Of a stretch of DNA of 64,000 bases, positions 10,601 through 57,680 are shown piece by piece (position 1 is the stretch's first letter; each line of letters starts with the position of its first letter). The stretch is from Gracilinanus agilis (Eukaryota): NCBI RefSeq assembly GCF_016433145.1, contig NC_058130.1, forward strand, positions 708,317,536 through 708,381,535. Reading direction: 5' to 3'. Position numbers and translations under genes: made by a program. The notes below the pieces were generated by a model. It did not search any database. It saw only the letters and a list, made by a program, of their open reading frames with translations, and was not told where the DNA came from.

Positions 10601-13600
10601 TATTTCCTTACCACCCAGGAATACCTCCCAGGATCTATCTCCACATCCCAGAGGGCTAAAGGGAACACTTACCTTGCTTATTTCCACCCCCAGGACCATG
10701 CAGCAGAGGATTCAGAAGAAGTTGTAGAGATGCAGGGGGTCCTAAGCTACTGAGGATCTGAAGAATGTTTGGCTCAGGCAGCAGCCCCTTCCCCCTGTTC
10801 AGAGCCTTAAGAGACAAACCAAAGAAACCAATCATAGTTCAGCACTGCCACATAAAGATTAACCCAGGGCCTGGCAAGAGGGTAACATGAAGTAAGGTAT
10901 CCTAAATCCCAGACACCTAGGCCAGGAAACATGGGTTGCTTAATGTCCTATGTCCAAGGAGGCCCCACTCACCGTGGCCTGGGCAGCAATGAGGGCAGCT
11001 AGCATACTCCGGCCTGGAGGGCCTGGGGCACAGAAAGACACTCGGACAGGATTTCCAGCCAGGACCATCCCATCGGCCTGCTGCTGGGCTTCTTCAGCCA
11101 TCTGTGATGTCTCATACTCCAACACTGCAAAGCCCTTCAGCTGTCCATCCTGTCCATATGCGAGCTGTGAGGCAAAAAGACAGGAAATAAACTGGGGAGG
11201 CCTATCACTACCCACCTCCCAGTTTAGAGATAGGCAAGTCAAGAAATCTATGGTCAGGTCATCATGATATAGTAGAAAAACCAAGGACTTTGGAGCCAGA
11301 AAACCCAAATTCAAATTATGGCTCTGGTAAGTCATTCTCTGTCTCTAGGCCAATTTCCTCCTCTATGAAATGAAATGGACTGTAAGGTTCTTCCCATGCC
11401 CCTATTAATAAAGGTGTAACACTGACAATGAGCCAGGCAAGCTTAGGCCTGTTTACCTGGCAGAAGGTGGGAGAATGTACAGAAGAAAGAGCCTGTCGAA
11501 GTTCATCCACATCACTGTAGCCCTGGGGTAGGTGGTCAACACAGAGGCATCGTGAATGCAACAGTGCTGGAGTCAGCTGGCTGGCATCTGTCCAGTGCAC
11601 ATACAGTGTCCGGGGGCCCAGTGGTTTGCCCAGTAGGTCTGACTTGGCTCTAGCTGCTGAATCCTTCTTCATATACTCTACAAAGCCATAGCCCTTGGAG
11701 TGACCACTGCGCTCACTGTACACCAGGAAGCAGCGCTCCAGATTGCCAAAGGGTCTCACTAGCTCCTCAAACTGCTGCTGTGTGTAGCTTGGGGGCAAGT
11801 TGGCAATACAAAGCAGGGCATCTGTGGGCTGCAGCTGCACTGACAGCTCCTTATCCCTCAGGTGGCTCTGGTGAAATGTGCGGATCGCTGATTCTGCTTG
11901 TTCCCCATTCAGCAAAGTCACAAAAGCTGGGATGAAGGGAATCACAGAGGGAAAAAATGAATACAACTAATAAAACAAGAGCGCCCCCAGAATCTCATCC
12001 TCTTGCCCTACAGCTTCCAGACCACTTTTCTTGGAGGGCATGTCTTTCCTAATCTCAATTTCCCAAGCCAGAGCACCCACCACTCACCAGTCCCCTTGTA
12101 CTTGTCCACAAAACAGTACTTGAGCTCATAGTCACTGAGCAGGTCATGTACTTCCTGTAGAAATAAACAGGAGATCAAGAAAAGTCACCTAGAGGCTAAA
12201 AAAGTAGGGCATTGAGGGGTTGCGGGGTAAATGGCTTGAGAGAAGAAACAAACTCCAGGATTCTGACCAGCTCCTTGATGCCAACTGCAACACTGTTCTT
12301 CACAGGAAAGCTGTGGGGACAAAGATGACGGGGCTGCCTATGCCAGATGAGATATCATGTTCCCCACAGGGTTAAAGTAGTGGACAGAAGACTTAGGACT
12401 CCAGAAATTCGAACACCAGGCCAGAAGCAGAATTTGTCCTAAAACCAAGTAGCCTACAGATCTGTTCCTTTCCCACAGAGCTCTTTCTCAATGGTTTAAA
12501 ACCTTCCTATTTTAACACACTCTGGCAGTAAGACTAGAGACCTAGAATGTACCAGCAGCAGAAAAGAAGGTACTAGTGTAGCCATCTAATCCAATTTCAT
12601 ATCTAACAGATTCACAACTGTCAGTCTCTACTTGGACATTTTTTAAAAAATCCTTGCTTTTGTCCTAGTAACAACTCTAGGACAAAAGGGCAAAGGCTAG
12701 GCAATTGGAGTTAAATGACTTGCCCAGGGTCACCGTCACAGGTAGAAATATTGGAAGCCACATTTGAACTCCAGACTCGTTATGCCTGGTTCTCTATCCA
12801 CTGTGCCACCTGGCTGCCCTCCATCCACGTTTCTTTACAAAGAGATGTTTGTTCCTTTCTTGCAAATAAATGCCTTCCACATTTCCCTCTTCACCAGGTT
12901 CAAAGGATACTAGAAGCTTAAAAAAGAGTTGGGTTCCACTCTCCTAGCATGCCCACAGTAAATAAGGGAAGTACTGAATCCAGGGAATTGCACCAAGGGA
13001 TAGCAGAGTCATGACATTAAGGTTTACACAAGTATTCACACTAAAAACCCCATTAAGATGTTTGTTTTGCTAAGGATGAGGAATTATCTAGAGAAACTCG
13101 GCTATCCATCTTAGCGAGCCACCCACTTTTCAATGCACAAATATTCCCGGACCAGCCCCAGGAGTCAAGCCTGGCTGCCTCCTTTCCTTCCTTCCTCCAC
13201 CTCTCAGCCTGGAAGACATAAGAAAGGGCCTAGAGCCCGCAAGCAAGCCAGGAGCCTGGTAGCTTTGGGTCAGACCAGGCTGGCCCCAAGACTCTGGGGC
13301 CCCACTTCGGTGGCGCCGACTTCCAGAGACCTCCCCCAACCCTAAACTCGCCAGACGAAACACCATCCGGTCCCAGAAGAGCGCCCGCGGCCCCGCCCCG
13401 CGATGTCAATCACTCCATCTCGTACAAACTGGTTGGTTGCTCCAAGGATGCCACGCCCCCTCGATCTTTCCCTGCGTTCCCCTCCCCCCACCCAGCAGAG
13501 CACACTCCCTCGGCGTACCCCGCCCCGAACTCCCACGTTGGTATCTCCCACTCCCCACAGCCCCCTGGCGGAAGATGTCCTGCCGCCAGCGCTCTAGTCC

Positions 13601-14850: not shown

Positions 14851-17800
14851 GGAAAATCAGGAGGTCAGTGCTAGGGGCTGGGAAGACCTTGACTAGCCAA
14901 TTTTCCTTGAATAGCCAAAGAAAAGAGTCAAAGGTGTTTATTCAATTAAATTGGAGATGTATAAAGTGCTTTAATTTAAATGTAGCCTCAGACACTCATT
15001 AGTTTCATGACCCTGTCCCAGTCACTTAACCTCCATATTCCTTAATCAACTGGAGAAGGAAATAGCAAATTAATGGTAGCTGTACAAACAAAAAAAACCC
15101 CAAACCCTATGGAATTAGGATTGACTGAACAACAACAAAGTGTTTAAATCTTGAAGCATGAGTTAGCTGCTATTTTATTTACTTTGTAATTTTTGTTTTC
15201 ATTAATAGTCATTCCCAGGTCTGACCATGTTACTTCAAAAACCTTCAGTGGGAGCAGCTAGGTGGTTCAGTAGATAGAACCTCAGGCCTAGAAATGGGAG
15301 GTCCTAGATTCAAATGTGGATTCAAACATTTCTAACTGTGTGACTGGGCTAATTAACCTCAGTTGCCTAGCCCTTCTCTTCTGCCTTGGAACTGATTTTT
15401 TTTTAAACCCTTAACTTCTGTGTATTGACTTATAGGTGGAAGATTGGTAAGGGTAGGCAATGGGGGTCAAGTGACTTGCCCAGAGTCACACAGCTGGGAA
15501 GTGTCTGAGGCCGGATCTGAACCTAGGACCTCCCGTCTCTAGGCCTGGCTCTCAATCCACTGAGCTACCCAGCTGCCCTGGAACTGATTTTTGATTCTAA
15601 GAAAGGAAAGGGTTTAAAAAAGGAACAACAAACTTCAGTGACCATTATATGTAAGGATAAAATACAAACTTCTGAGACATGGTGCAACCTCTAACACCAC
15701 CAGCCATGTGACCATAGAGGCAAATTACTTCTCTGCACCTCAATTTTCTCATCTGTAAAACAGATTTAATAGATACCTAAAGTAGTTAACTTAACAAGGT
15801 TGTTGTGAAGCAACTCGAGATTTTAAAAATTACATATTTATATAGTGATTACTATGTGTTAGGCACTGTGCCAAGCACTTTATAATTATCACAACCCTGG
15901 GAGGTAGGTGCTGCTCTTATTCCTATTTTTCAGATGAAGAAACTGAGGCAAATAGAGATTCAATGACTTGATTCACTGCTAGTGAGTGTCTGAGGCTGGA
16001 TTTGAGCTAAGGTTTTTCTGGCTCTATTCAGGACATCATCCATGAATTTTTTTTTTAATTCTTCTGCCTTAGAATTTATAAGAAGTATCAATTCAAAGGT
16101 AGCAGAGAGGTAAGGGTTAGGCAGTTAGGGTTAGTTGACTTGCCCAATGTCATACAGCTAGGAAGTAGGTAAAGTCAAATTTGAACCCAGGACCTCTTCA
16201 GGTCTGCTCTCTAATCCACTAAATCACCTAATTGCCCCTACCACCTATAAAAGTTTATGAATCTTAGGTATTTTTAACTTCCACAGGCCAACTCCAACCT
16301 ATGTCCAGCCTTCTATAATCTCCTTCCCCTTTACATAGCTTTTTTCAACCAAAGCTATTGCCTATACTGTCTGTCTCCCTTGCAATACCCATCTTCCCAC
16401 ATGGCCTGTGTTTAAATCTGGCTTCAGATCGCTTTCTAACTGTGTGACAATGGGCAAGTCAGCTAGCCCAATTGCCTTGTCCTTGCCATTCTTCTATCTT
16501 AAAATTGATCCTAAGAAGGGAAGAGTTTAAAAAAAATAAGGAAAAGAAAAGAAAGATATATGTATCATCTCATCCAAATAGTACCTTTGAAGGCAGCAGG
16601 TATGGTGCCTTTCATTCTTTATATCTTCAGGGCCACTATAGGACTCTGAATTTAGTAGTACTTAATATGTATTTCTTGAATTGTCTGGGCAGCACAAGAA
16701 ATTGGTGGTCAAGAGGCTGTACTTACATAGGACTAGAAGCTGAAGGCTCTTGTTCCTCCATAATTTCTCTCCCATCAGTTCCAGGACAGCTTGGCAGGTA
16801 AACCAGTACCCATCATATTCCTCAGTGGCTGTCAGGGAGAGCTGGGCAATCTCACCAGGTGAAAAGAGGGTGCCATTTATCAATACCCTGGCCCCTACCA
16901 GTGCCTCACAGGTCACATTCACTAAGGTCCCTTCAGGTACAGTGGGCTGGCTGATCACCAGGTTAGGTAGAGGGAAACCTGAGGAAAAGGATAAGGGACC
17001 ATTTTGGTATCCAGAGAGAGCTGAGCAGGGCCTTGACTTTGTCTTTGCCCTTGCCCTACCACCTCCCTCTGTCTCAGCCCCATCAGGTTGTGACTCTCCT
17101 TACTGTAAATGGTCAGATTTCCATGGACTTCTCGGTTTTGATTCCCTAGAGTCACGTTGCAAGTCAGCTCCCACTGGCCCTCTCTCTCTCCCTCTGCAAT
17201 GGCTGCTATGGCTGTGGCCCTGAGCATGTCCTGGCCCCGGGTGACTGTTAGACTCAGGTTTCTCCCTCCCAGGGACAGATAGATTTGGGCATCCTCCACT
17301 GGAAATAGCTTGTCAATCTCGCAGCTTACAGTGGTCTCCTTGCCGATCTCCAGAAGTTTAGGGGCTGTGAGGTGAGGGGGATCCTGGCCTAGGACTGAGA
17401 GGACAGGAAGAATTAGAAGAGAGAAGTTCAGACAGGTGGGAATAGAATGTGAAGGGTACTGGTACCTGTCCCCCTTTTGCCATCCCTCACCAAATGTGTG
17501 GAGCTCCACAGGGATCGAACTGTTCTGATAGAGGACTAAACCTTGTGGTCCCAGGTCCAGCTTCAGCTCTGCTCTGCAAGAGAAGTTGGCTTTGTGGTTC
17601 TCTCTACTGGCTGTGGCTGTGACTGTGATCTCTGCTGCCTTTTCTGGGCCTTGTTCAGAGACTGACTGCCTGCTCAGTTCCTGAGATCCTTGAAACAGTG
17701 CCACTGTCAGGTTTTGTCTGGGTCTCCCACCCAACACTTGGCATCGAAGGCTGAAATTCTGGCCGACAGAGATCCATGGATCCAGAGGTTCAAGCGCCAC

Positions 17801-20800
17801 ATATTCTGGTGGCTCTGGAAAGAGGAAAGAGAACCCCAAATGGACTGTGGGAGTAGAGGATTGCCTAGTTTCCCACTACCTCCTCCTAGTGGATAGGTTC
17901 AGCTTTGGACAGATTACAGTGAAACTTTTTTTTTAAACCCTTACCTTCCACCTTAGAATCAATTCTATCTATTGGTTCCTAGGCAGTGGTAAGGTATAGG
18001 CCAGTGATGACAAACCTACGACACACGTGTCAGTGCTGACATGTGTAGCCATTTTCAATGACATGTGGCCACATGCCGAGGATGAAACATTTGATGTAGT
18101 GTAGACACTGTGCACTATAGATGACAATTCTACCAATATTAATTTACCTATTTTGGTTTACTAAATATAGTTGCATATCATAATTATACATTTTTGTTAT
18201 TTAAACTATAAATATCATGTAATTATGTGTTTTTTTCTTCTTGAAATGACACACCACCTGAGTTATGCTCGTTTTTTTGGCGAATTTTGACACACCAAGC
18301 TCAAAAGGTTGCCCATCTCTGGTATAGGCAGTGGGGGTTAAGTGACTTGCCCAGGGTCACACAGCTAGCAAACATCTGAGACCAGATTGAACCTAGGACC
18401 TCTCATCTCTAGGCTTAGCTCTCAATCCACTATGCTACCCAGCTGCCCTCTGAAACTCTTGATTTAAGAAGACCTTCAAATACCCTTCATGACCTTGCCT
18501 CCTTCTACCTCTCCAGGCTTCCTTTACTTTGCTCTCCTGCTAAGTGCTTATTTGATCTAGTGACACTGGTCTCCTGGCTGTTCAAGGAACAAGACGCTCT
18601 ATATCTAAGCTCTGGGCATTTTCTCTGGTTTTTCCATGCCTAGAAAGAACTCCCTCCTACATTTTGACTACTGACCTCCCTGGCTTCCTTTAAGTCTTCT
18701 CTTAATTCTAGTGCTTTCCCATTGTTAATTATTTCTTATTTATCCTGTCTATCCTATCTTGTTTTGTATAGATTTCCATGTTGTTCTTTCTATTCAATTA
18801 TAAACTTCTCGAGGGCAAGGACTGTCTTTTGCCCCATTTTGTATCACCAGCTCTTAGCACAGTGCCTGGCACATATAGGCACTTGATAAATGTTGACTGA
18901 TTGTCTGAGTCTAGTTTTTAAACACCTCAACATTCATTTTAAAATCTTTTATTAGAACTAATAAAGGCTTTTTCTGGTTAAGTTGATCAAACTTTTTAAA
19001 ACCTAGCTTTTTAACTCAGTAAAAGGTTTAAATTAACACCATTTTTTGTTAAACCCTGAATATACTTTCCTAGGTGTTCTGTAATCAACAGATTTTCCTA
19101 AGTGCTGTGTGAAGAAGAGTAAATGTTCTTTCTCAAGGTCATCATGCTTATTGAAAATTGTTGGCTGGCCAAGAAGGAGGCAATAACTTGGTCAGGAGGT
19201 TATAAAACCCTAGATTTACAACCAGAACAGACCTTAGAGGTAGACCATCTTGTCCAACCCTTCATTCTACAGATGAGGAAACTGAATATGTACTAATTTT
19301 CATATAGCTGCTTCTGACCTCTCAATTTCATCTTGTCAGTCACAGGGCACATGTCCTGTAGTCATTTGTGTTATACAACCTTTCTAGATCCCACTGACAG
19401 ACCTTAGGACAGAAAGCCCACCCCTTCAAACACCTGCCAAAACAGTGGGTCATAAACTGGCAGAACACTAGGACTTTCCTGTCAGACCCGGACAGATGTA
19501 TAACTTGAACATATCCTAAGGGCATTCATTCCTGAGAACACCCCCACCCCACCCCCAGAAATAGCCAGTGAAGTCGAAGTCAACTTGTCCTCTACGCCCC
19601 CTCCTTCCCCAAACCTGTAAGACCCAATATCAACCCCCCCACCCTCAGGTGGGACTGCTTTGCCAATTCTCTTGGCAACAGGCTCCCCTTTACTACCTTT
19701 TCCCTCCTACCCTATGGGACTCTTAGCTATCTATTGGAATGGAGCTCCCCATCACCGCACCTCTCCTTCACACACCCCTTTCTTCCATTAAAGATTTGCT
19801 ATATTACCTTACTCTCCTTGTCTCTTGGGTTGAACCCCCATCAGTCAGACTGACCCCTACATGTCATGGTTCACTGGAGGCACATGATCTCTGCTCCACA
19901 TGCCCCAGTCATTCCCACTCCAGAACCCTATCGAACCCACAGACTTCATGGCACATTCCCTCACCTGTCCCACAGGCCATGGCAGTCTTGCCTGAGAAGG
20001 GGACATTGCTGGCTCAAATAGTCTGAGGCAGCTAGACATAACCACTGGTCCTGGAGTCAAGAAGATCTGGGTTCAAGTTGTGAGATAACTTTAATTTCTC
20101 TGACTCACTTTTTATTATTTAATAATGATTATAAATTAAGATACAATCTCCAGATCATTTAATCAACAAAATCTAGCCTCAGATAGCTGGGCACATCACT
20201 TAACCTCTGCCTTAGTTTCCTCAACTAAAATGGGGGTCATTGTACCATCTGTCTCCCAGGGTTTTTATGAAGATTAAATGAGATATTTGTAAAGCATTTA
20301 ACATAGTGCCTGGCACCCAAAGGGCACTCAATGAATGCTTGTTTCCTTGCTAGTCATCTTATGATGAGAGAGGATGACCAGTTCCCCCAGGCCTTAATAG
20401 GGTCTCTTGGGTTAGGAGGAAAGGAGACCTCGAGGTTAGGGGTGCTAGAATGATCCCAGAGATAATAATCCCAGGAGTGGTTGCCATAATGCCAGTGAAA
20501 GCTATTGAAAGACTTCGAGGTCAGGCACAGGGAGGCCATAGGAAATACATTTGCCTCTGCCCAGGAAATTTGCTCCTTATATTGATAAACCTATAGCAAA
20601 GCTCTAGTTGTTTGGTCCTAGGTATAGTTTTGGGGCCATAGTCACTAATGGTGTGCCACCATCTCTCCCTGCCCCCCCACACCCAGATACTTACGAATCA
20701 CAGTGATAGTGGTTCTGTGGACCATCTGAGGTTCCCCAAAGCAGTTGGCAAAGCAGAGGAGCTGGGTATCCTGGATCACGTTTCTCAGTAGGAATTCTTT

Positions 20801-21347
20801 CCATCTGGTCCCATTGGCAACTTGTGTCTTGTTAAGTGGAGTCTCCAGGCCAATGTATTGTGGCTGGTCACAGTTTGTACTGCAGTTCACCAGCAAGTTC
20901 CCCCCAGGAGCAGTCACTGGGTCTGGGGGTTCTATCCATATGATCCCTGGAACCCCTGAAAAAAGAGACATGGGCAACTGCCTCAGGCTCTCTTTTTAAG
21001 GACTTTCTTCCTGGCTTACCAAGTGTCTGGGCCCCTTTCTTACTTCCACCCACATTCCCCTTCGGACACACAAAACCCCCCTTGCCCTCTGAGGAAATCA
21101 TCCTCTCCTGGGATTAAGCCGGGTTAAGTTAATGGGTACTGCTCTCCAAGTTATCCTCATCTCTGGGCCCCCAGTACAAAAACCTGGGTCCCTCTGTCCT
21201 CTCTTTGCCTTTTCTCAAAGCTAAAAGAGAATAAGGGCCCTGGGACCTACAGGGGGCCCTCTCCCTTGCCTGGGTCTCACCTGAAAGCATGAGGGCAAAC
21301 ACCAGCAGGTTTAGGGAAGCCTTTGGCCAAGTCTTGGGGTGTGCCAT
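14319..21347 (-). CDS. ICAM3: Intercellular adhesion molecule, ICAM3 orthologue by synteny; 541 aa, signal peptide, 5 Ig domains, TM and tail
   Basis: Exons 21347-21281, 20955-20695, 17814-17491, 17394-17104, 16978-16727, 14847-14599 and 14500-14319, all phase 1, totalling 1626 nt. D1 has CSTNC..CFANC and the integrin-binding IGLETPL motif. 14 N-x-S/T sequons counted. TM is PIVVGVLLALGLATTAGAITILFL and the tail has RRGSY. The gene lies between RAVER1 and TYK2. Confidence 0.88.
15401..15578 (-). mobile_element. Young SINE1_Mdo-like SINE (short-tail variant) nested in an older SINE1
   Basis: TSD TGGAACTGATTTTT at 15387-15400 and 15579-15592. Near-identical to the copies at 25066, 29974 and 53526. 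Confidence 0.85.
17927..18448 (-). mobile_element. SINE1_Mdo-like SINE split by a hAT MITE
   Basis: The SINE halves rejoin across the GTATAGGC duplication. Confidence 0.8.
18002..18321. mobile_element. Non-autonomous hAT DNA transposon (hAT1/nhAT1-like)
   Basis: TIRs CAGTGATGACAAACCT ... AGGTTGCCCATCTCTG; perfect 8-bp TSD GTATAGGC (17994-18001 and 18322-18329); GACAC(A/G)CGTGTC-type subterminal repeats. Confidence 0.9.
19357..19861 (+). mobile_element. Solo LTR in ICAM3 intron 2
   Basis: TGTAG...CTACA termini; TSD TGTCC/TGTCA (4 of 5 match); ATTAAA about 70 nt before the 3' end. Confidence 0.7.
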
Positions 21348-21480: not shown

Positions 21481-24400
21481 AGCTCCTGAACTCCCAATTC
21501 CCAGCCTGGAGGCTGCTCAGTGAGCATAAGAGTATGAAAGATGGGACCAAGCCCATAAGACAATTTTCCAATTCCAACAGAAGCATCTCTGATCTGTATG
21601 AAATCACTAGTCCCCACCCCCAACAGGAAGCCACCAGCCCTTGGCCAACAGTTAGGGTTAGGCCTTCTTCCTTTCTGCTAAGCAAGAGACTTGAATGGTA
21701 GAGCTAGAGTGGGGGAGGAGGGATTGATTGTCCTCTGGACAATGTTCACTGCCCAGCTTTGGTGCCCAGGGCTGGACTCATTCTGTTTCCTCTTTGCACT
21801 TCACATGCTTCCACAATGGGGGAATAAAAAAAACAAAACAACAAAACCAACCTCAGGGAGCATTTAGGGCTAGAGAGCAGGACAAAGAACTATGGGTGAA
21901 AGAAGCCTTTTAAGCTTGGTGTCAGCAGCAAGGACCTACCTGTTAGAGGTAACCCCAAGCAGGACCAGCTGCCTTCAGAAAGAAGGTTCTCCGGCCCACT
22001 GGAAGTTTTCCAGAAGAAGCAGGATTACTACTGGTCACAGATGCTTAAGTGTGAATTCTTTTTCTGGTATGAGTCGGGCCAGATGGCTGCCGAGGTCCCT
22101 TCCAACTCCTAAATTCTGGTCTGATTTTACAGAGATGAAAAATGAGTTCCAGAAGGGTTAAGTGACTTGCTCAGTCATGTGGGAAGTAAGTTTTTTGATC
22201 CAGATCAGATCCCAGGGCCTCTAGATCCATAATCATTCCTTTTCCCACTCAATCACACTGTTCTCAATTGATTCAAAGGAAGGAAGGAAGAAAAGAAAGA
22301 AACAAGCTCTTAGCATTCACTGTGCGATGCTAAGCATATTTTGCAAATATTTCATTTAATCCACAACCCTAGAAAATAGGTGCTATTATTACCCCCATTT
22401 TACAGTTGAGGAAGCTGAGAAAGACAGATTAAAGCGATTTACCCAGGTCACACAGCTAGTCTGAGGTCCACATTTGAATTAGGGTTTTCCTGATTCCAAG
22501 GCCAACACTATCCACTCAACCCCTTAGCTGTCTCTGTTGTATGGAAGAGTTCATAAAGAAGAAAGCCTTTATAATAGCTTTGTTCTGGCATCCCTATCCT
22601 GTTATCAGTGATCACTAGAAAGTGATTTAGAAGTTAGAAACCTGGGCTATTGTCAGGATTCTTGACTCTCTTCCTTTTCCCTCAAACTCTTTCAAGAAGG
22701 TGAGATATCTAACAGCTTTATCACTAAGCATCATAAATATTTTCTGAGCACATGTGAAGAAGCTATGGATAAGAAACGTTATGTTCTTGGGAACAGCAAT
22801 GACATGGTGAGTGCTGAGGCTAGAGCATTGGGTAGGAAGCCCAAATTTTATCTTTTTCCTGCTATAGATCTGACTGGGCTAGAAAGGGGTTGTCTCAAGA
22901 GCACAATCTACTTCTGAGACAGGCAGGTGGAGAAATGGATAGAGCACAGATCCAGAAGACCTGAGTTCAAATCCAGCTTAGGCACTTATTAGCTACATGA
23001 CTCCTGGCAAGTCATTTAACCTATTTTCTCAGCTGTAAAAAATGTTAACAATAAGAGCACCTACTTCTTAGGAATGTTGTGAAGATCAAATGAGAGAATA
23101 CATGGAAAAGACTTAGCACATTTTAGGCACTCTAGAATAGTTAGCTATTATCCTTTTTATTGTAACAGTACCACATCTGACATTTCCATAGCCTTTTAGG
23201 GCCTACAGATGCCTTTCCTCACAACAACTTTAGGAGGTAAGTCATGGAAATATTACTCTTCTCACTTTACAGGTGAGGAAACTGAGACACCAAAATGACT
23301 TGCCCAGGGTCGTAAAGCTAGAAAGTTGCAGAGATAAGACTCAAATTCAGGTCATGGCAAATGCTCTTACCTACACTGAGCTGCTTTGTGATATATATAG
23401 TGAGTTTTTGTCCTCCCTTTTCTGCTACTAAGTTTTGGGAGGGCTGGATCGCGTGGAATTAGGTCTGTTTTGCTTTAAATCCTTGTTCCATCATAAACAA
23501 GCATTTTGCATTTTAGACTTCTCCCTCTCCTTCCAGCTCCCACCACTCTTGCAGACTCAGCCAAGCTTCCCCTTCTCTCTACCCAAGGAGACAACATCTT
23601 GGACCATCTTTTTGTTACTGGGGTTTGCACCATCTCTCAATCATTCCCATGCTGGTTCTAGAGGAGGATTTAGGATAATCTTAGCTCCTCTTCGATGATT
23701 CCCAGTTCTCTCCTCTGTCACCAAGACTTAGCAATCTATCTCTTTTTCTGTGTATTATGTGTGGGAGGGGAAGGGGGTGTGGAGGAAGAAGAAAAGGGAA
23801 TAACAGTTTATCAAGTGTCAGGCACTGTGTTAAGCGATTTACAAATATCTCTTCGGCTTCCAGGCTTGTTAAAGTTTGCGTGCTGAAGAATGAACAGGGA
23901 CTGAGGCTAGGCAAGCAACTTCACAAAAGTTCTGATTTATTATACATTAGAGAAAGATTTTTATCTAGAGTAGAATGCTAAGCATTACATCATATTTAGG
24001 AGGCGTTTCTTTCCCACAGAATATTGTTTATGTAAAAGCATGAACCAAAACATTTTTTAAGACTTCTCTGTAAACCCAAGAATTCAATGGGCCAGAGTTC
24101 ATTCCCAGATATCTCACCTGCTACTTGCATAAACAACTTTGCTGTGACCTTCAACAGAACACAGAGGTGTCTCTGGGAAAATTATTTGTGGCCTTTTTCT
24201 CCCTGGATCAGACCCCAACATTTATTCATGGCTCTTTTCTCACTGGATCAGACCCTAACATCTCTTTGACCTTATCATTATTTCATTTCACAATACTCCT
24301 GTGAGGAAGATGCTATTATCAGCCCTGTTTTGTAGTTGAGGGAACTGAGGCAGATAGGGATTAAGTGATTTGCCCAATCAAGTGTCTGAGGCTGGATTTA

Positions 24401-24581
24401 AACTCAGAGCTCTGTCCACTGGGCCACCTAGCTGCCTATCCAGATGTATCACTCAATCCATATCCTGGGAGTCATCTATTCTCTTCTTCCTCAAGTAACT
24501 TAGTACCTGGCTCAATTCTTTGAGCCACCTCAACTCTTGCCTTTTACGCAAGGGGATTTCAACATTGCCACTGATGTTCCC

Positions 24582-25444
24582 TGTAGGGTTCCAGGTTAAA
24601 ACAAATCATGAAAGTATTAAAGATGCATTCAGTAGGTGACTCTTATGAGCAATAATATGCTCGTGTACCAGACTTCTGGATATATTTCTAATATTTCACA
24701 TAATTGATTTCTGGATCCTTGCATTGAATCAGGGCTCAAATCTTGTGGTACTCTGATCCCTTCCCACACCTGCAGTCAGAAGGTCAAATGAACCTCTGAG
24801 CTGGGCACTGGCTACTACACTGTCTTAGTCTTCATCTCGTTTATCTTGTTGTTTACCAAGCTGATGCTAAATTCTCTACCATGTCACATGTTTAATCAAC
24901 TATCTCCCTCTTCCCCATTCCTCAAAACTTCATTAAAAATGTTTTCACCTGTAGTTCGCTCTCTCATACCATCAGAAGAGCAATTGACAGGCTGGACGCT
25001 ATGCCGATGAATCCTGTGTCTCTTCGCCTTTTTTCTTGCCTTATATCCTCACTTCCTTAATCTTTTTTTTTTTTTTTAATTTTAAACCCTTAATTTCTGT
25101 GTGTTGACTTATAGGTGGAAGAGTGGTAAGGTTAGGCAATGGGGGTCAAGTGACTTGCCCAGGGTCACACAGCTGGGAAGTGTCTGAGGCCGGATTTGAA
25201 CCTAGGACCTCCTCTCTCTAGGCTTGGCTCTCAATCCACTGAGCTACCCAGCTGCCCCACTTCCTTAATCTTTAAACCCTTCCACCTAAATTCCCTCAGT
25301 CCCCAGTTTCTCTTTCAGGTGGTCAACCCATGTAAGAATATCTTGTTACAATATCTTGTAATGTAGCTGGTCAGCTACATTAAGAGTCAGCTATTGAATG
25401 CATCTTTAATACTTTCATGATTTGTTTATACCTGGAACCCTACA
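24582..25444. mobile_element. Unclassified TG...CA element with 64-bp terminal inverted repeats and a 5-bp TSD
   Basis: Left arm 24582-24645 and right arm 25381-25444 match at 60 of 64 positions. TSD TTCCC at 24577-24581 and 25445-25449. About 655 bp after removing the nested SINE. Confidence 0.85.
25066..25257 (-). mobile_element. Young SINE1_Mdo-like SINE
   Basis: 16-bp TSD CACTTCCTTAATCTTT at 25050-25065 and 25258-25273. Confidence 0.88.
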
Positions 25445-26741
25445 TTCCCTCCCATATAATGGCCTTCCAATTCTTCAGTCACTGCAACTCCTACAACCTA
25501 TATTTCTACTCAACTTTAGCTACTATGAGGACTGATACACTTTTCATTTCACCATTACCCACAAATATACCACTTTCGTTCTCAAGAATTTAGAAAGTCT
25601 TTTCTCTGACCATAGTTTTTTTTTTTTTTATCATTTTCTCCCTCCCTGTGCCTTACAATGGACTTCATTCTTCATCATCATCCATATTCCTAATTCTTCC
25701 AGCCTTTAGCAGTCTTTTAGGCTACCTGGTCAACTGCTTTGGGTTCACTTCCCAATCTTGACCCTTAAGCTAACCAGTTCAGCATTAAACTCTCCTCTCC
25801 TCTGAAAGTCCTTTCCCCTTTTTATCCTTTCAACATTCAGATCTTTGCCAAAACCTAATCATTTCCACCATTCACATCTGCTCCAGTGCTCCTGGGAAAC
25901 ATAGTAGGGGTTAATACATGTTTATTGATTGATCGATTGAGTGCTTCTGTTCACTCACTTGTTGCTGAATATAGCTGATGGAAGTCAGGCAACCCTGGTG
26001 AGTCTACTATAGATTTCTGTTATCTAATCTCAAATTGACACAGACTGCAGCAGAACAATCTCTGTATTCTTCCTTACTAAATTGTCTCTAGCATTACTCA
26101 AAGCAGCTATACCAAACCTTCCAACCTTACCTCAAGCCTCCACTGTCCACTCCCCTCCACCTTTCTTCTCAGCAGAGGATATTGCATCATACTTTATTGA
26201 GAAAGCAGAAGTCAGTTATACACCATGAACTTCCTCTCACCCCTCTTCTCTTTAAACCTGAGACCCCTTAGATGTCATTCCTCATTACTTCCTCCTTTTT
26301 ACTCCAGTTTCTGATGATGAGGTAGACTGTCCGCCAAACTCATCCCTCTATGTGTACCTATAATTCCAATCTCTCCTACCTTCCCCAGAGATTGCCTCCA
26401 CAAGAATCCATCCTTTCTCTGATTTTCAGATTAACTTCATTTTCTCCTTATCTATTGGTTTCGTTCTTGCTACCTACAAAAGTGCCAAGGTTTTTTTTTA
26501 ACCTAAGAAGAAGCAAAAACTTCTTTCCTTGATTCTACTTAATATCACCAAATGCTATCATCTTCTATCTCTTTTCCCTTTGTCAGATAAACTACAAATA
26601 TGCTCTCTACTCTCCTTGCCTCCACTAACTCTCCTCTGACTTAAATTCTCACCTCCTTAAAATCTCACTTCCATCCTTATCCCTCAATTACAATTGATCT
26701 CTTCAGAGTTAATGATGTTTTTTATTCATGTTCCAGATGAG

Positions 26742-26952
26742 NNNNNNNNNNNNNNNNNNNNNNNNNNNNNNNNNNNNNNNNNNNNNNNNNNNNNNNNNNN
26801 NNNNNNNNNNNNNNNNNNNNNNNNNNNNNNNNNNNNNNNNNNNNNNNNNNNNNNNNNNNNNNNNNNNNNNNNNNNNNNNNNNNNNNNNNNNNNNNNNNNN
26901 NNNNNNNNNNNNNNNNNNNNNNNNNNNNNNNNNNNNNNNNNNNNNNNNNNNN
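26742..26952. other. Assembly gap (211 N)
   Basis: Run of N bases. Confidence 1.
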
Positions 26953-31359: not shown

Positions 31360-31788
31360 AGACATTTATGGTTGTACATGGGCCTACAGGGAGACTTGTA
31401 AATCCAAGAGGCCTCTCCAAAGGACTATATTCACCAAGGAACCAACTAGCACTAGATGGAAATGTGGAAATAAGGACAGAGGCCTGCAGGCTGTTGCATA
31501 AGACCTCTGAAGAGATGCCCAACAACAGAAAGAGGTAAAGGAAGGAGTAAACCTTTTTTTTAATAATAAAATAAAAAAGGAAGGAGTAAACCTAGACATT
31601 TATGGTTGTACATGGGCCTACAGGGAGACTTGTAAATCCAAGAGGCCTCTCCAAGGGACTATATTCACCAAGGAACCAACTAGCACTAGATGGAAATGTG
31701 GAAATAGGAAAAGAGGCCTGCAGGCTGTTGCACAAGACCTCTGAAGAGATGCCCAACAACAGAAAGAGGTAAAGGAAGGAGTAAACCT
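31360..31788. repeat. Tandem duplication of a 195-bp unit
   Basis: Copies at 31360-31554 and 31594-31788 differ at only a few positions and are separated by a 39-bp spacer. Confidence 0.92.
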
Positions 31789-33189: not shown

Positions 33190-33823
33190 TGTGAAGATAG
33201 AATTAACTCTCCTTTTGTCTATTTTTAGCTAATCAAATCAAGAACTTAAAGTACCCCTACTTAGTAGCTAGCTAACCATTAGGTAAGAGAGCTCACAAGT
33301 CATTTACTAGTTCACACCCTTAAAAGCCACAAGCACTCCCCCCATCTTGGGCAGTGCTCAGCAAATTGGGAGACTGCAAATGGTTCCTGTAAAGAGGGAG
33401 AGAGACAGGAAGTGACATAGAAAAAGGGGTATAAAAAAAGAGACTGAACATGGTCTGGCACTCTTTCCTGCCTTGGCTTTTGGAGAGACTCTTTCCTTGG
33501 ATTCTGCATCAATGAGTAGAGCTTGGTGGAACTCTGGCTGAAGACACCACCAGGACTTCTGACTAAGGACTACCGGAAATCCACATGGAGACTGGGACTT
33601 GGGGAAGCCCCTGCCAGGGGATGAGCCCTTTACCAGAGCAGCACTTAGGGCTTGTAGGCTAACTAGGCTTTGTTTCCCTCCTATATTTCCCACTTTCACT
33701 ATCTCCACCCTGTTGTAAATAAAAGTTGCTAATGGTAATTTTGACTTAGAGGCTAATATTTTATAAATTGTGACCACTTTTATAACTCTCATATTGAGCC
33801 AAAACCTAAATTTAATTGTTACA
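33190..33823 (+). mobile_element. Solo LTR (ERV1-like, 4-bp TSD)
   Basis: TGTG...TTACA termini; TSD TGGG on both sides; ACAGGAAGTG ETS site, TATAAAA near 33430 and AATAAA near 33718 in LTR order. Confidence 0.8.
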
Positions 33824-35534: not shown

Positions 35535-37195
35535 TGTTGAGGGGGTGAAGGGAGGGTAGGTAGAAGGAAGGATGGATGGGAGAAAGGAGAGAGGAAGGGA
35601 AAGGAAGGTAGCAGGGGGAAATTGACCAGAGCCCTTTGGGGCTCAAATAAAAGATCAGAGAGTAGCTTTAGGGTTTAGAATAGCTAGGTCTTATTTAAAT
35701 TAGAAAGGGGAAGGTCTAGGAAAAACTAGGATGTAGATAGAAAGGGTAAAAGGCACCGAGAAAGATCAGAGTAGATAGCGTCAGTCAGCCTCCGGGCTCA
35801 GAGAGTAGACAGACTCCAGGGTAGAGAGATGGAAAAGATGCCACACTCTCTATTTTATACTTTTTCTGACACTTCCCACAAAGGAAGTGGGAGTTGTCGG
35901 GGAAAGTTGTAGCAGGGATCCCTGGGAGATGTAGTCTTCCAGGGCTTACAACAATTCCAAATGACACATTCCCCCCTGTGATCCTTTGGGAGACCAATCT
36001 CCCCAATGGATCATATAACAAACATAAATAAATTTACAATTACAATAAAATAAAGGGTATATACATCAATACAAGGGGAGAATGATAACAGTTTTTTTAC
36101 AATATAAAGAAATCACATACTTGGCGCTTCTTTTACAAAAAAATCAGGGGGCAGACCCCTTTTCTTCACAACAATACATGTACATATAAAACAAATACAT
36201 TTAAGCAAAACAGATGAATTTAACAAAACAAATGAATTTTAAACCAGCAAATGAATTTAAAACCCCCCAAAGTTCAAAATTTTGCTCCGGTTGCTCTTTT
36301 AGGCTCCTGGATCAGCATGCATTTTCCATGTGGTCTCCACAGGCATCTCCATTTGGATTCCAGGAGGCAGTAAACTTTTCCTAAAATAAACTCTCCATAT
36401 GAAATAAAAACACATTCCCCCCTGAGGAGGATAGAAAGAAACAATGAAATCACAGAGGGGTATATGGCTGAGGCAGGAGGCATGTGAATCACTGCCAATC
36501 AAATTCATCAGAAAAATTAGCACAAAAAGGCCAAATAACTAGTGGATGAAAAATTCTAAACATCCAATCCTAAATTTTTTATGGAAAAGTTCTAAATAAG
36601 AAAAAAAAGAAAAAACACACTAGGTCTTTGAATAATGTCCAATCAAAGTAATCCATGTCCAATATCATGCATTTACCCACTTAACAGCCAGGACCACAGT
36701 CAACAACCATAGTAAGAAGATTAGGAAAAAGGACTAGATTTGTATTTATTGGTCTGATATTATGTCATGTCTTCTTTTCTTCTTTCGTCGTTTCTTCTCA
36801 GGGAAATAATATGGAGACAGAACAGCCAATTGTTAGGTACTTGATATAAATTTCACAAGGAGTGTAGTTCCAGGAGTCCTACATCTTAACGTATGTTAAG
36901 CCTCACAACCTCAATTCTCACACTAGGTTCAAGTCCTGTTTATTGGCATAGAAGTCTCAGCAATCCTAGTAGGATTGGTTTCTCTTTTTGACCTGTGTGC
37001 TGGTTTGCTAATCAATGATATTGATGCCACTGCAATGATAATAACTGGCATTAGCAATTGATATTGGGGACAATAATCACTAGAGACTTTAATATCTCCA
37101 AGGAGAGCACATTGGACTGTACCATTAGAAGAATTGCACAGACCCTTGGAGGACATCTCGGTGCTACAGTGGGCATTGAATCTGGAAAACCTGAT
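35535..37195 (-). mobile_element. ERV 3' remnant: LTR (35535-35968), PPT and env-like internal sequence
   Basis: Minus-strand TGT start at 35968 is preceded by the purine tract CAGGGGGGAA; TATAAAA near 35855; ...CAACA end at 35535. Decayed internal frames show N-glycosylation sequons, Cys residues, a furin-like RSKR (36994-36983) and a TM-like FFLIFLLWLLTVVLAV (~36733-36684). Confidence 0.65.

Positions 37196-48096: not shown

Positions 48097-57680
<9,584 letters not shown>

Follow-up and report, generated by a model that had tools for sequence, protein, structure and literature searches.

The question raised by this locus is to which class of mobile element an 863-nt insertion (24582-25444) belongs; we studied it within a 64,000-nt stretch of Gracilinanus agilis contig NC_058130.1, hereafter the window. 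The original prediction had put forward two candidates, a solo LTR and a DNA transposon of the Ginger2/TDD type, and in our assessment both were rightly named. The left arm (24582-24645, + strand, starting with TGTAGGG) and the right arm (25381-25444, − strand, ending with CCCTACA when read on the + strand) are 64 nt each and are complementary at 60 of 64 positions, the count originally given; we located the four mismatches at 24597, 24598, 24632, and 24636, while the outermost 15 bp are perfect. In a blastn search within the window, one arm finds the other with an E-value of 1e-22. The sequence TTCCC lies directly outside the terminal TG and CA (24577-24581 and 25445-25449, both on the + strand), making a duplication of 5 bp, not 6; with the ends fixed, the probability of an exact repeat of 5 bp by chance is 0.0013. 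The window has 4210 TG starts, of which 23 are matched by a perfect inverted repeat of at least 10 bp located 300-1500 nt away; only the 863-nt element shows a 5-bp duplication, one other pair having 4 bp. The ends and the duplication thus bear out that a mobile element was inserted here by a TG...CA, 5-bp-staggered reaction of the integrase type, as had been claimed. Terminal repeats of 64 bp, for their part, are typical of cut-and-paste elements.

Beyond these 64 bp, the inverted likeness is not significant, as 257 of 500 shuffles, and 520 of 2000, do equally well; a degenerate inverted repeat that could be followed by eye to about 110 bp was dropped on this ground. Just inside the left arm lies a small hairpin (24645-24664, + strand; for the fold of 24640-24700, z is −2.9 and 1 of 200 shuffles is equally stable). 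The right arm is adjoined by a perfect 10-bp palindrome (25360-25381, seen in sequence and fold) and, beside it, by a 10-nt direct micro-duplication on the + strand (25337-25346 and 25350-25359, within 25337-25359). The longest open frame of the element has 72 codons, which leaves it without coding capacity, and an Rfam search returned no match. There is no second copy of the element in the window, every long match being to a SINE.

The order of events at the site can be read from its neighbours. The element interrupts an old LINE, whose left part (24504-24581, + strand) is an open frame of 26 codons with a GDFN motif and whose right part (25450-25590, + strand) carries on with 47 open codons in the same frame. 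The claim that the flanking frame rejoins across TTCCC holds as far as the single open frame is concerned; its L2 label had no Pfam support (LINE matches for 0 of 3 short pieces), and we take the LINE to be of L2 type from its endonuclease motif GDFN. As had been noted, the element was in turn invaded by a young SINE (25066-25258, − strand), presumably of the opossum SINE1_Mdo type, which would mark the DNA as marsupial and opossum-like, between two exact 15-bp copies of its target-site duplication (25051-25065 and 25259-25273, + strand). This SINE is 96.4% identical over 195 nt to another window copy (53534-53727) and 91-94% identical to three more; its insertion is later than that of the element, which measures 655 nt without it, again as originally stated.

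The element stands about 3.2 kb upstream of the predicted start codon (21347) of an ICAM gene (16955-21347, − strand; Pfam PF21146 and PF03921), in a mammalian RRM-ICAM-kinase gene cluster that also comprises an RRM gene (11316-11963, − strand) and a tyrosine kinase gene (51448-51828, − strand); this gene order is presumably that of RAVER1, ICAM3, and TYK2. Several other features of the surroundings were recorded. An ordinary solo LTR of 634 nt at 33190-33823 (+ strand), which we used as a control, has TG...CA ends, a 4-bp duplication (TGGG), a 3-bp terminal repeat, and the words GGAAGT, TATAAA, and AATAAA at its positions 219, 241, and 529, respectively. Another LTR at 35535-35968 (− strand) has GGAAGT, TATAAA, and a purine tract directly before its start; its duplication was not found, and it is likely the 3' LTR of a provirus with its interior to the right. 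A 408-nt LTR-like insertion in a MIR-like repeat (23853-24260) has TG/CA at one end only, a possible 5-bp duplication TCTCT, and a 40-nt tandem duplication (24182-24261). A 195-nt tandem duplication (31360-31554 and 31594-31788, 97.4% identity) is either a recent duplication or an assembly artefact, and an assembly gap of 211 N (26742-26952) lies 1.3 kb from the element.

If the element were single-copy, its arms would point to a local inversion artefact, and we turned to public sequencing runs to look for other copies. An index of 22 runs was used, 20 of which contain some of the words searched for (organisms A-E, no RNA run being listed among them); four runs, X1, X3, X18, and X8, representing organisms A, B, C, and D, respectively, were compared after reading 18.7, 21.2, 18.3, and 10.1 million records. 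Contigs were placed at 80% likeness on 24410-25075, a span that covers no more than the left flank and the first 494 nt of the element. There were 847 matching contigs in X1, 795 in X3, 779 in X18, and 298 in X8. In X1, the unique flank has a depth of 40-50 and the arm one of about 11,000, while most of the interior lies between 500 and 3,000 and a peak at 24686-24708 reaches 57,000, values that are no copy number and support “many copies” only; the profiles of the other three runs have the same shape. Contigs with a loose end exactly before 24581/24582 number 36 (X1), 24 (X3), 41 (X18), and 14 (X8), and agreement among these loose ends at the left terminus is 0.39-0.49 across the four runs, so that the flanks of other copies are unrelated and share no common target motif. 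Contigs from the unique flank itself stop before the insertion junction. The many contigs, together with unrelated flanks that start at the left terminus, rule out a single-copy inversion artefact, and this outcome favours the original prediction: the element belongs to a repeat family with many dispersed copies, present in four organisms. When metagenome, viral, and prokaryote collections were scanned for exact motifs, 0, 1, 0, 3, and 0 loci were returned; the four microbial or viral loci are alike over 11-32 nt only and were discarded as chance matches.

The family has subfamilies in all four runs, as shown by sites that are bimodal (24626, 24633, 24666, and 24714, at 33-73% of depth) and by an indel-bearing variant, recognizable at 24652-24667 by loose ends that agree closely (up to 0.95); the variants may co-segregate. 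“Skip” joints were not counted as deletion derivatives, since 13 of the 15 joints listed consist of one contig with unknown or replaced intervening letters. The segment 24663-24731 (+ strand) is the deepest in all four runs, by depth and by contig counts, reaching 2.5 to 5 times the depth of the arm, and would be common to a much more abundant related subfamily.

Are both arms a property of the family or of this copy? The duplication adjoins both arms, and both were therefore present at integration. Private changes are found in the left arm at 24632 and 24636, whereas at the matching places the right arm has the letter found in 95-99% of depth (X1, X3, and X18), so that the right arm is not a late copy of this left arm. 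Of the suggested overwriting of one end of a solo LTR, a late version dating from after insertion is thereby disfavoured, given that the right arm ends exactly at the duplication and keeps the family letter where the left arm has changed. At other loci, at least three contigs join the left arm to the left interior (record 2 of X1, record 17 of X3, and record 9 of X18). One further X3 contig (depth 28) joins 24642 to 24711 on opposite strands, which suggests a shortened copy with both arms and, hence, a right arm elsewhere. We also weighed the case of an ordinary solo LTR family in which the long right arm exists in this copy or in very few, having arisen by a template switch in the insertion's own round of replication. 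No right-arm inner junction near 24645 appears among the 24 loose-end rows listed for the four runs, the perfect palindrome and the micro-duplication that adjoin the right arm would suit such an event, and the inverted likeness is lost inward of the 64 bp. One would nevertheless expect unitigs to break at the inner edge of an arm, so the missing row is not decisive; the opposite-strand X3 contig, moreover, has an arm in inverted orientation attached to left interior sequence, and any post-insertion change would need to end exactly at the duplication and to predate the left-arm changes at 24632 and 24636. We consider this account quite improbable.

A transposon reading has to be taken more seriously, while still being unlikely in our view: the element would be a non-autonomous MITE, whose 64-bp arms are bound by a transposase resembling Gypsy integrase, of the Ginger2/TDD kind, which makes 5-bp duplications. 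It is in keeping with the lack of coding capacity. According to PMC2836005, Ginger1 elements have arms of about 40-270 bp and 4-bp CCGG/CCGT duplications, while Ginger2/TDD elements have arms of 45-297 bp, with 4-bp duplications in RTATAY for metazoan Ginger2. The 64-bp arm of this copy is within the published ranges and its TGTAG fits the TGTNR end of Ginger2/TDD; TDD-4 and TDD-5 do make 5-bp duplications (PMC2836005). The opposite-strand joint between 24642 and 24711 in X3 (a single contig) could then be an internally deleted copy with two arms, and the inner arm is covered by 54-60 contigs in X1, X3, and X18 vs 11-52 for the typical interior, about twice as many, as two arms per copy would give.

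Against this, TTCCC, at 5 bp, fits neither the CCGG/CCGT rule of Ginger1 nor the RTATAY rule of metazoan Ginger2, and the flanks of the other copies are without a common motif. The Ginger2/TDD lead of the original prediction is, thus, sustained by the TGT ends and the arm length, but is weaker than was claimed: according to PMC2836005, 5-bp duplications among Ginger groups are made only by the TDD elements of Dictyostelium, and PMC3575427 reports no GINGER2 transposon in any vertebrate from a tBLASTn survey that included opossum. The vertebrate GIN1 and GIN2 are described as domesticated genes (PMC3424704, PMC5753468). The arms are also less widely common than 24663-24731, the reverse of what transposase binding would lead one to expect, although depth is a soft measure; the same peak in depth and contigs weakens the two-arms contig count. 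No autonomous partner was found in the window or in the microbial and viral collections. The broader claim, that of a Ginger/TDD-type cut-and-paste family with 64-bp arms and 5-bp duplications, in many copies in marsupial genomes, which would be the first dispersed Ginger-like family in a mammal, appears to us doubtful to a slightly greater degree. From mammals, the literature consulted reports only domesticated single genes derived from Ginger.

From the long terminal inverted repeats and the missing coding frame, one could also envisage membership in a different group of DNA transposons that makes 5-bp duplications, or two elements joined in a composite. The TG...CA ends with an att-like motif tell against it, as does one duplication bracketing the entire 863 nt; Transib, a group with 5-bp duplications, has CAC ends, which also counts against it. 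Such an origin is very improbable.

The reading that we prefer, with confidence only slightly better than even, is that the element is a solo LTR of a marsupial endogenous retrovirus, lying on the + strand, and that its U5 end likely repeats the initial 64 bases of U3 in inverted form, a change that would go back to a founder element. It is favoured because of the TG...CA ends with an att motif, the 5-bp duplication, the lack of target preference, the subfamily variants, the succession of AATAAA, hairpin, and tract, and the two ordinary LTRs nearby. By a Dfam rule of thumb, TG...CA ends, a poly(A) signal, and duplications of 4-6 bp indicate solo LTRs, and co-segregating variants point, for the Dfam curators, to class I (PMC7805219). 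Table 3 of PMC3601003 gives an att motif for HML (betaretrovirus-like) elements, the att repeats of LTRs being about 7 bp. The 5' HML motif has 11 letters, and TGTAGGG fits the first 7; CCCTACA fits 7 of 7 letters of the 3' motif. The duplications of HML-2 are 5-6 bp (PMC4425911), and among RepeatModeler consensus models for opossum, 212 are LTR vs 55 DNA (PMC5851578).

Some observations do not go in the same direction. The terminal repeats of the two neighbouring LTRs are 3 bp vs 64 bp in the element, which counts against an LTR. Neither a primer-binding site, nor a polypurine tract, nor internal sequence was found at the terminus among the loose-end rows listed for the four runs. Within the window, there is no direct, LTR-type pair of the element, and Pfam gave only 1 match (ICAM_N) in 80 open frames between 17.8 and 48.2 kb, with no gag, pol, or integrase family.

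The orientation of the putative LTR was judged from its internal signals. An A-rich box (24932-24937, + strand), about 300 SINE-free bases from the element end, reads ATTAAA in this copy, whereas 90-100% of depth at place 24933 in each of the four runs supports AATAAA, the reading of other copies; from its letters, it may be a poly(A) signal or a TATA-like box. AATAAA occurs on either strand in 1011 of 2000 shuffles, so that the hexamer alone says little. The box is followed by a predicted stem-loop (24941-24999, + strand; z of −2.0 for the fold of 24938-25000, with 8 of 200 shuffles as stable), which is not significant in the longer fold of 24930-25050 (40 of 200 shuffles), and by a pyrimidine-rich, A-poor tract (25002-25054, + strand; 75% C+T, 11% A). 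The order of poly(A) signal, hairpin, and pyrimidine tract has been described for LTRs (PMC2664473). On the minus strand, we found the GGAAGTGAGGATATAAGG motif at 25056-25039, where GGAAGT and GATATAAG overlap the target site of the SINE. TATA-like words occur only at 24679 (+) and 25047 (−), and neither orientation of the element has a clear pair of TATA and poly(A) signals.

Base composition was compared between the two orientations. After the A-rich box, it is 63% C+T and 19% A; after the TATA of the neighbouring LTRs, with n = 2 for this control, C+T is 55% and 68% and A is 20% and 14%. The 120 nt that follow the minus-strand motif have 40% C+T and 32% A, unlike both neighbours. We preferred the + orientation since the sequence downstream of the box resembles the neighbouring LTRs and that downstream of the minus-strand motif does not. 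The promoter-like motif noted earlier on the minus strand is, thus, present, but its promoter reading, and with it a minus-strand LTR, is disfavoured by composition. Both the retroviral origin and the + orientation are what we infer from such signals.

For a solo LTR on the + strand, the following history can be proposed. While a progenitor was being replicated, a template switch would have placed a copy of its U3 terminus at U5, so that each end had a TG...CA site usable by integrase; scars of the switch could be the palindrome (25360-25381) and the micro-duplication (25337-25359). Such a founder event is deduced from one copy. Descendants would then have been reverse-transcribed and integrated by a retroviral integrase. 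One copy went into the old LINE with a 5-bp duplication and with both arms already in place. The interior of its provirus would have been removed by LTR-LTR recombination; later, the SINE was inserted and the arms drifted to 60/64 identity.

The literature searched, Repbase and Dfam being outside its scope, yielded no marsupial LTR or MITE described as having arms of this kind, and its matches to the terminal motifs are, by their listings, unrelated primers. Given its abundance, the family probably has a name in Repbase or Dfam; LTR names in the opossum repeat library run to numbers beyond 100 (PMC4408412). If the element is an LTR, a retroviral element would be able to multiply after one of its ends had been remade into a long inverted likeness of the opposite end. 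Terminal inverted repeats are the proposed origin of LTRs (PMC3601003), and the element would then be a structural half-way point between LTRs and terminal inverted repeats of that ancestral type, as well as a trap for any classifier that assigns every repeat with long arms to the DNA transposons. If it is instead a Ginger-type MITE, a transposon superfamily would be added to mammals, pointing to horizontal transfer into marsupials.

Compared with known systems, the element resembles Ginger2/TDD (TDD-4 and TDD-5) in its TGTNR ends, its arm length, and the 5-bp duplication of TDD (PMC2836005). It differs from metazoan Ginger2, with its 4-bp duplication in RTATAY, and from the group as a whole in occurring in a vertebrate, PMC3575427 reporting no GINGER2 from vertebrates; the arms are not the most widely common part of its family, and no transposase-bearing copy is known here. 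Ginger1 and the domesticated GIN1/GIN2 are similar in TGTNR ends and arms of 40-270 bp, but the 4-bp CCGG/CCGT duplication of Ginger1 is missing from the element and from the flanks of its other copies. The solo LTRs of marsupial endogenous retroviruses, class II or betaretrovirus-like by the att motif, although class III also makes 5-bp duplications, have terminal inverted repeats of about 7 bp vs 64 bp here, and neither their pair of TATA and poly(A) signals nor a linked provirus was found for the element. With these solo LTRs, it shares TG...CA ends, termini of the TGTNGGG/CCCNRCA type, a 5-bp duplication, a length of 655 nt, the lack of a coding frame, subfamily variants, and dispersed copies, as well as an A-rich box, then a predicted hairpin, then a pyrimidine tract in like order.
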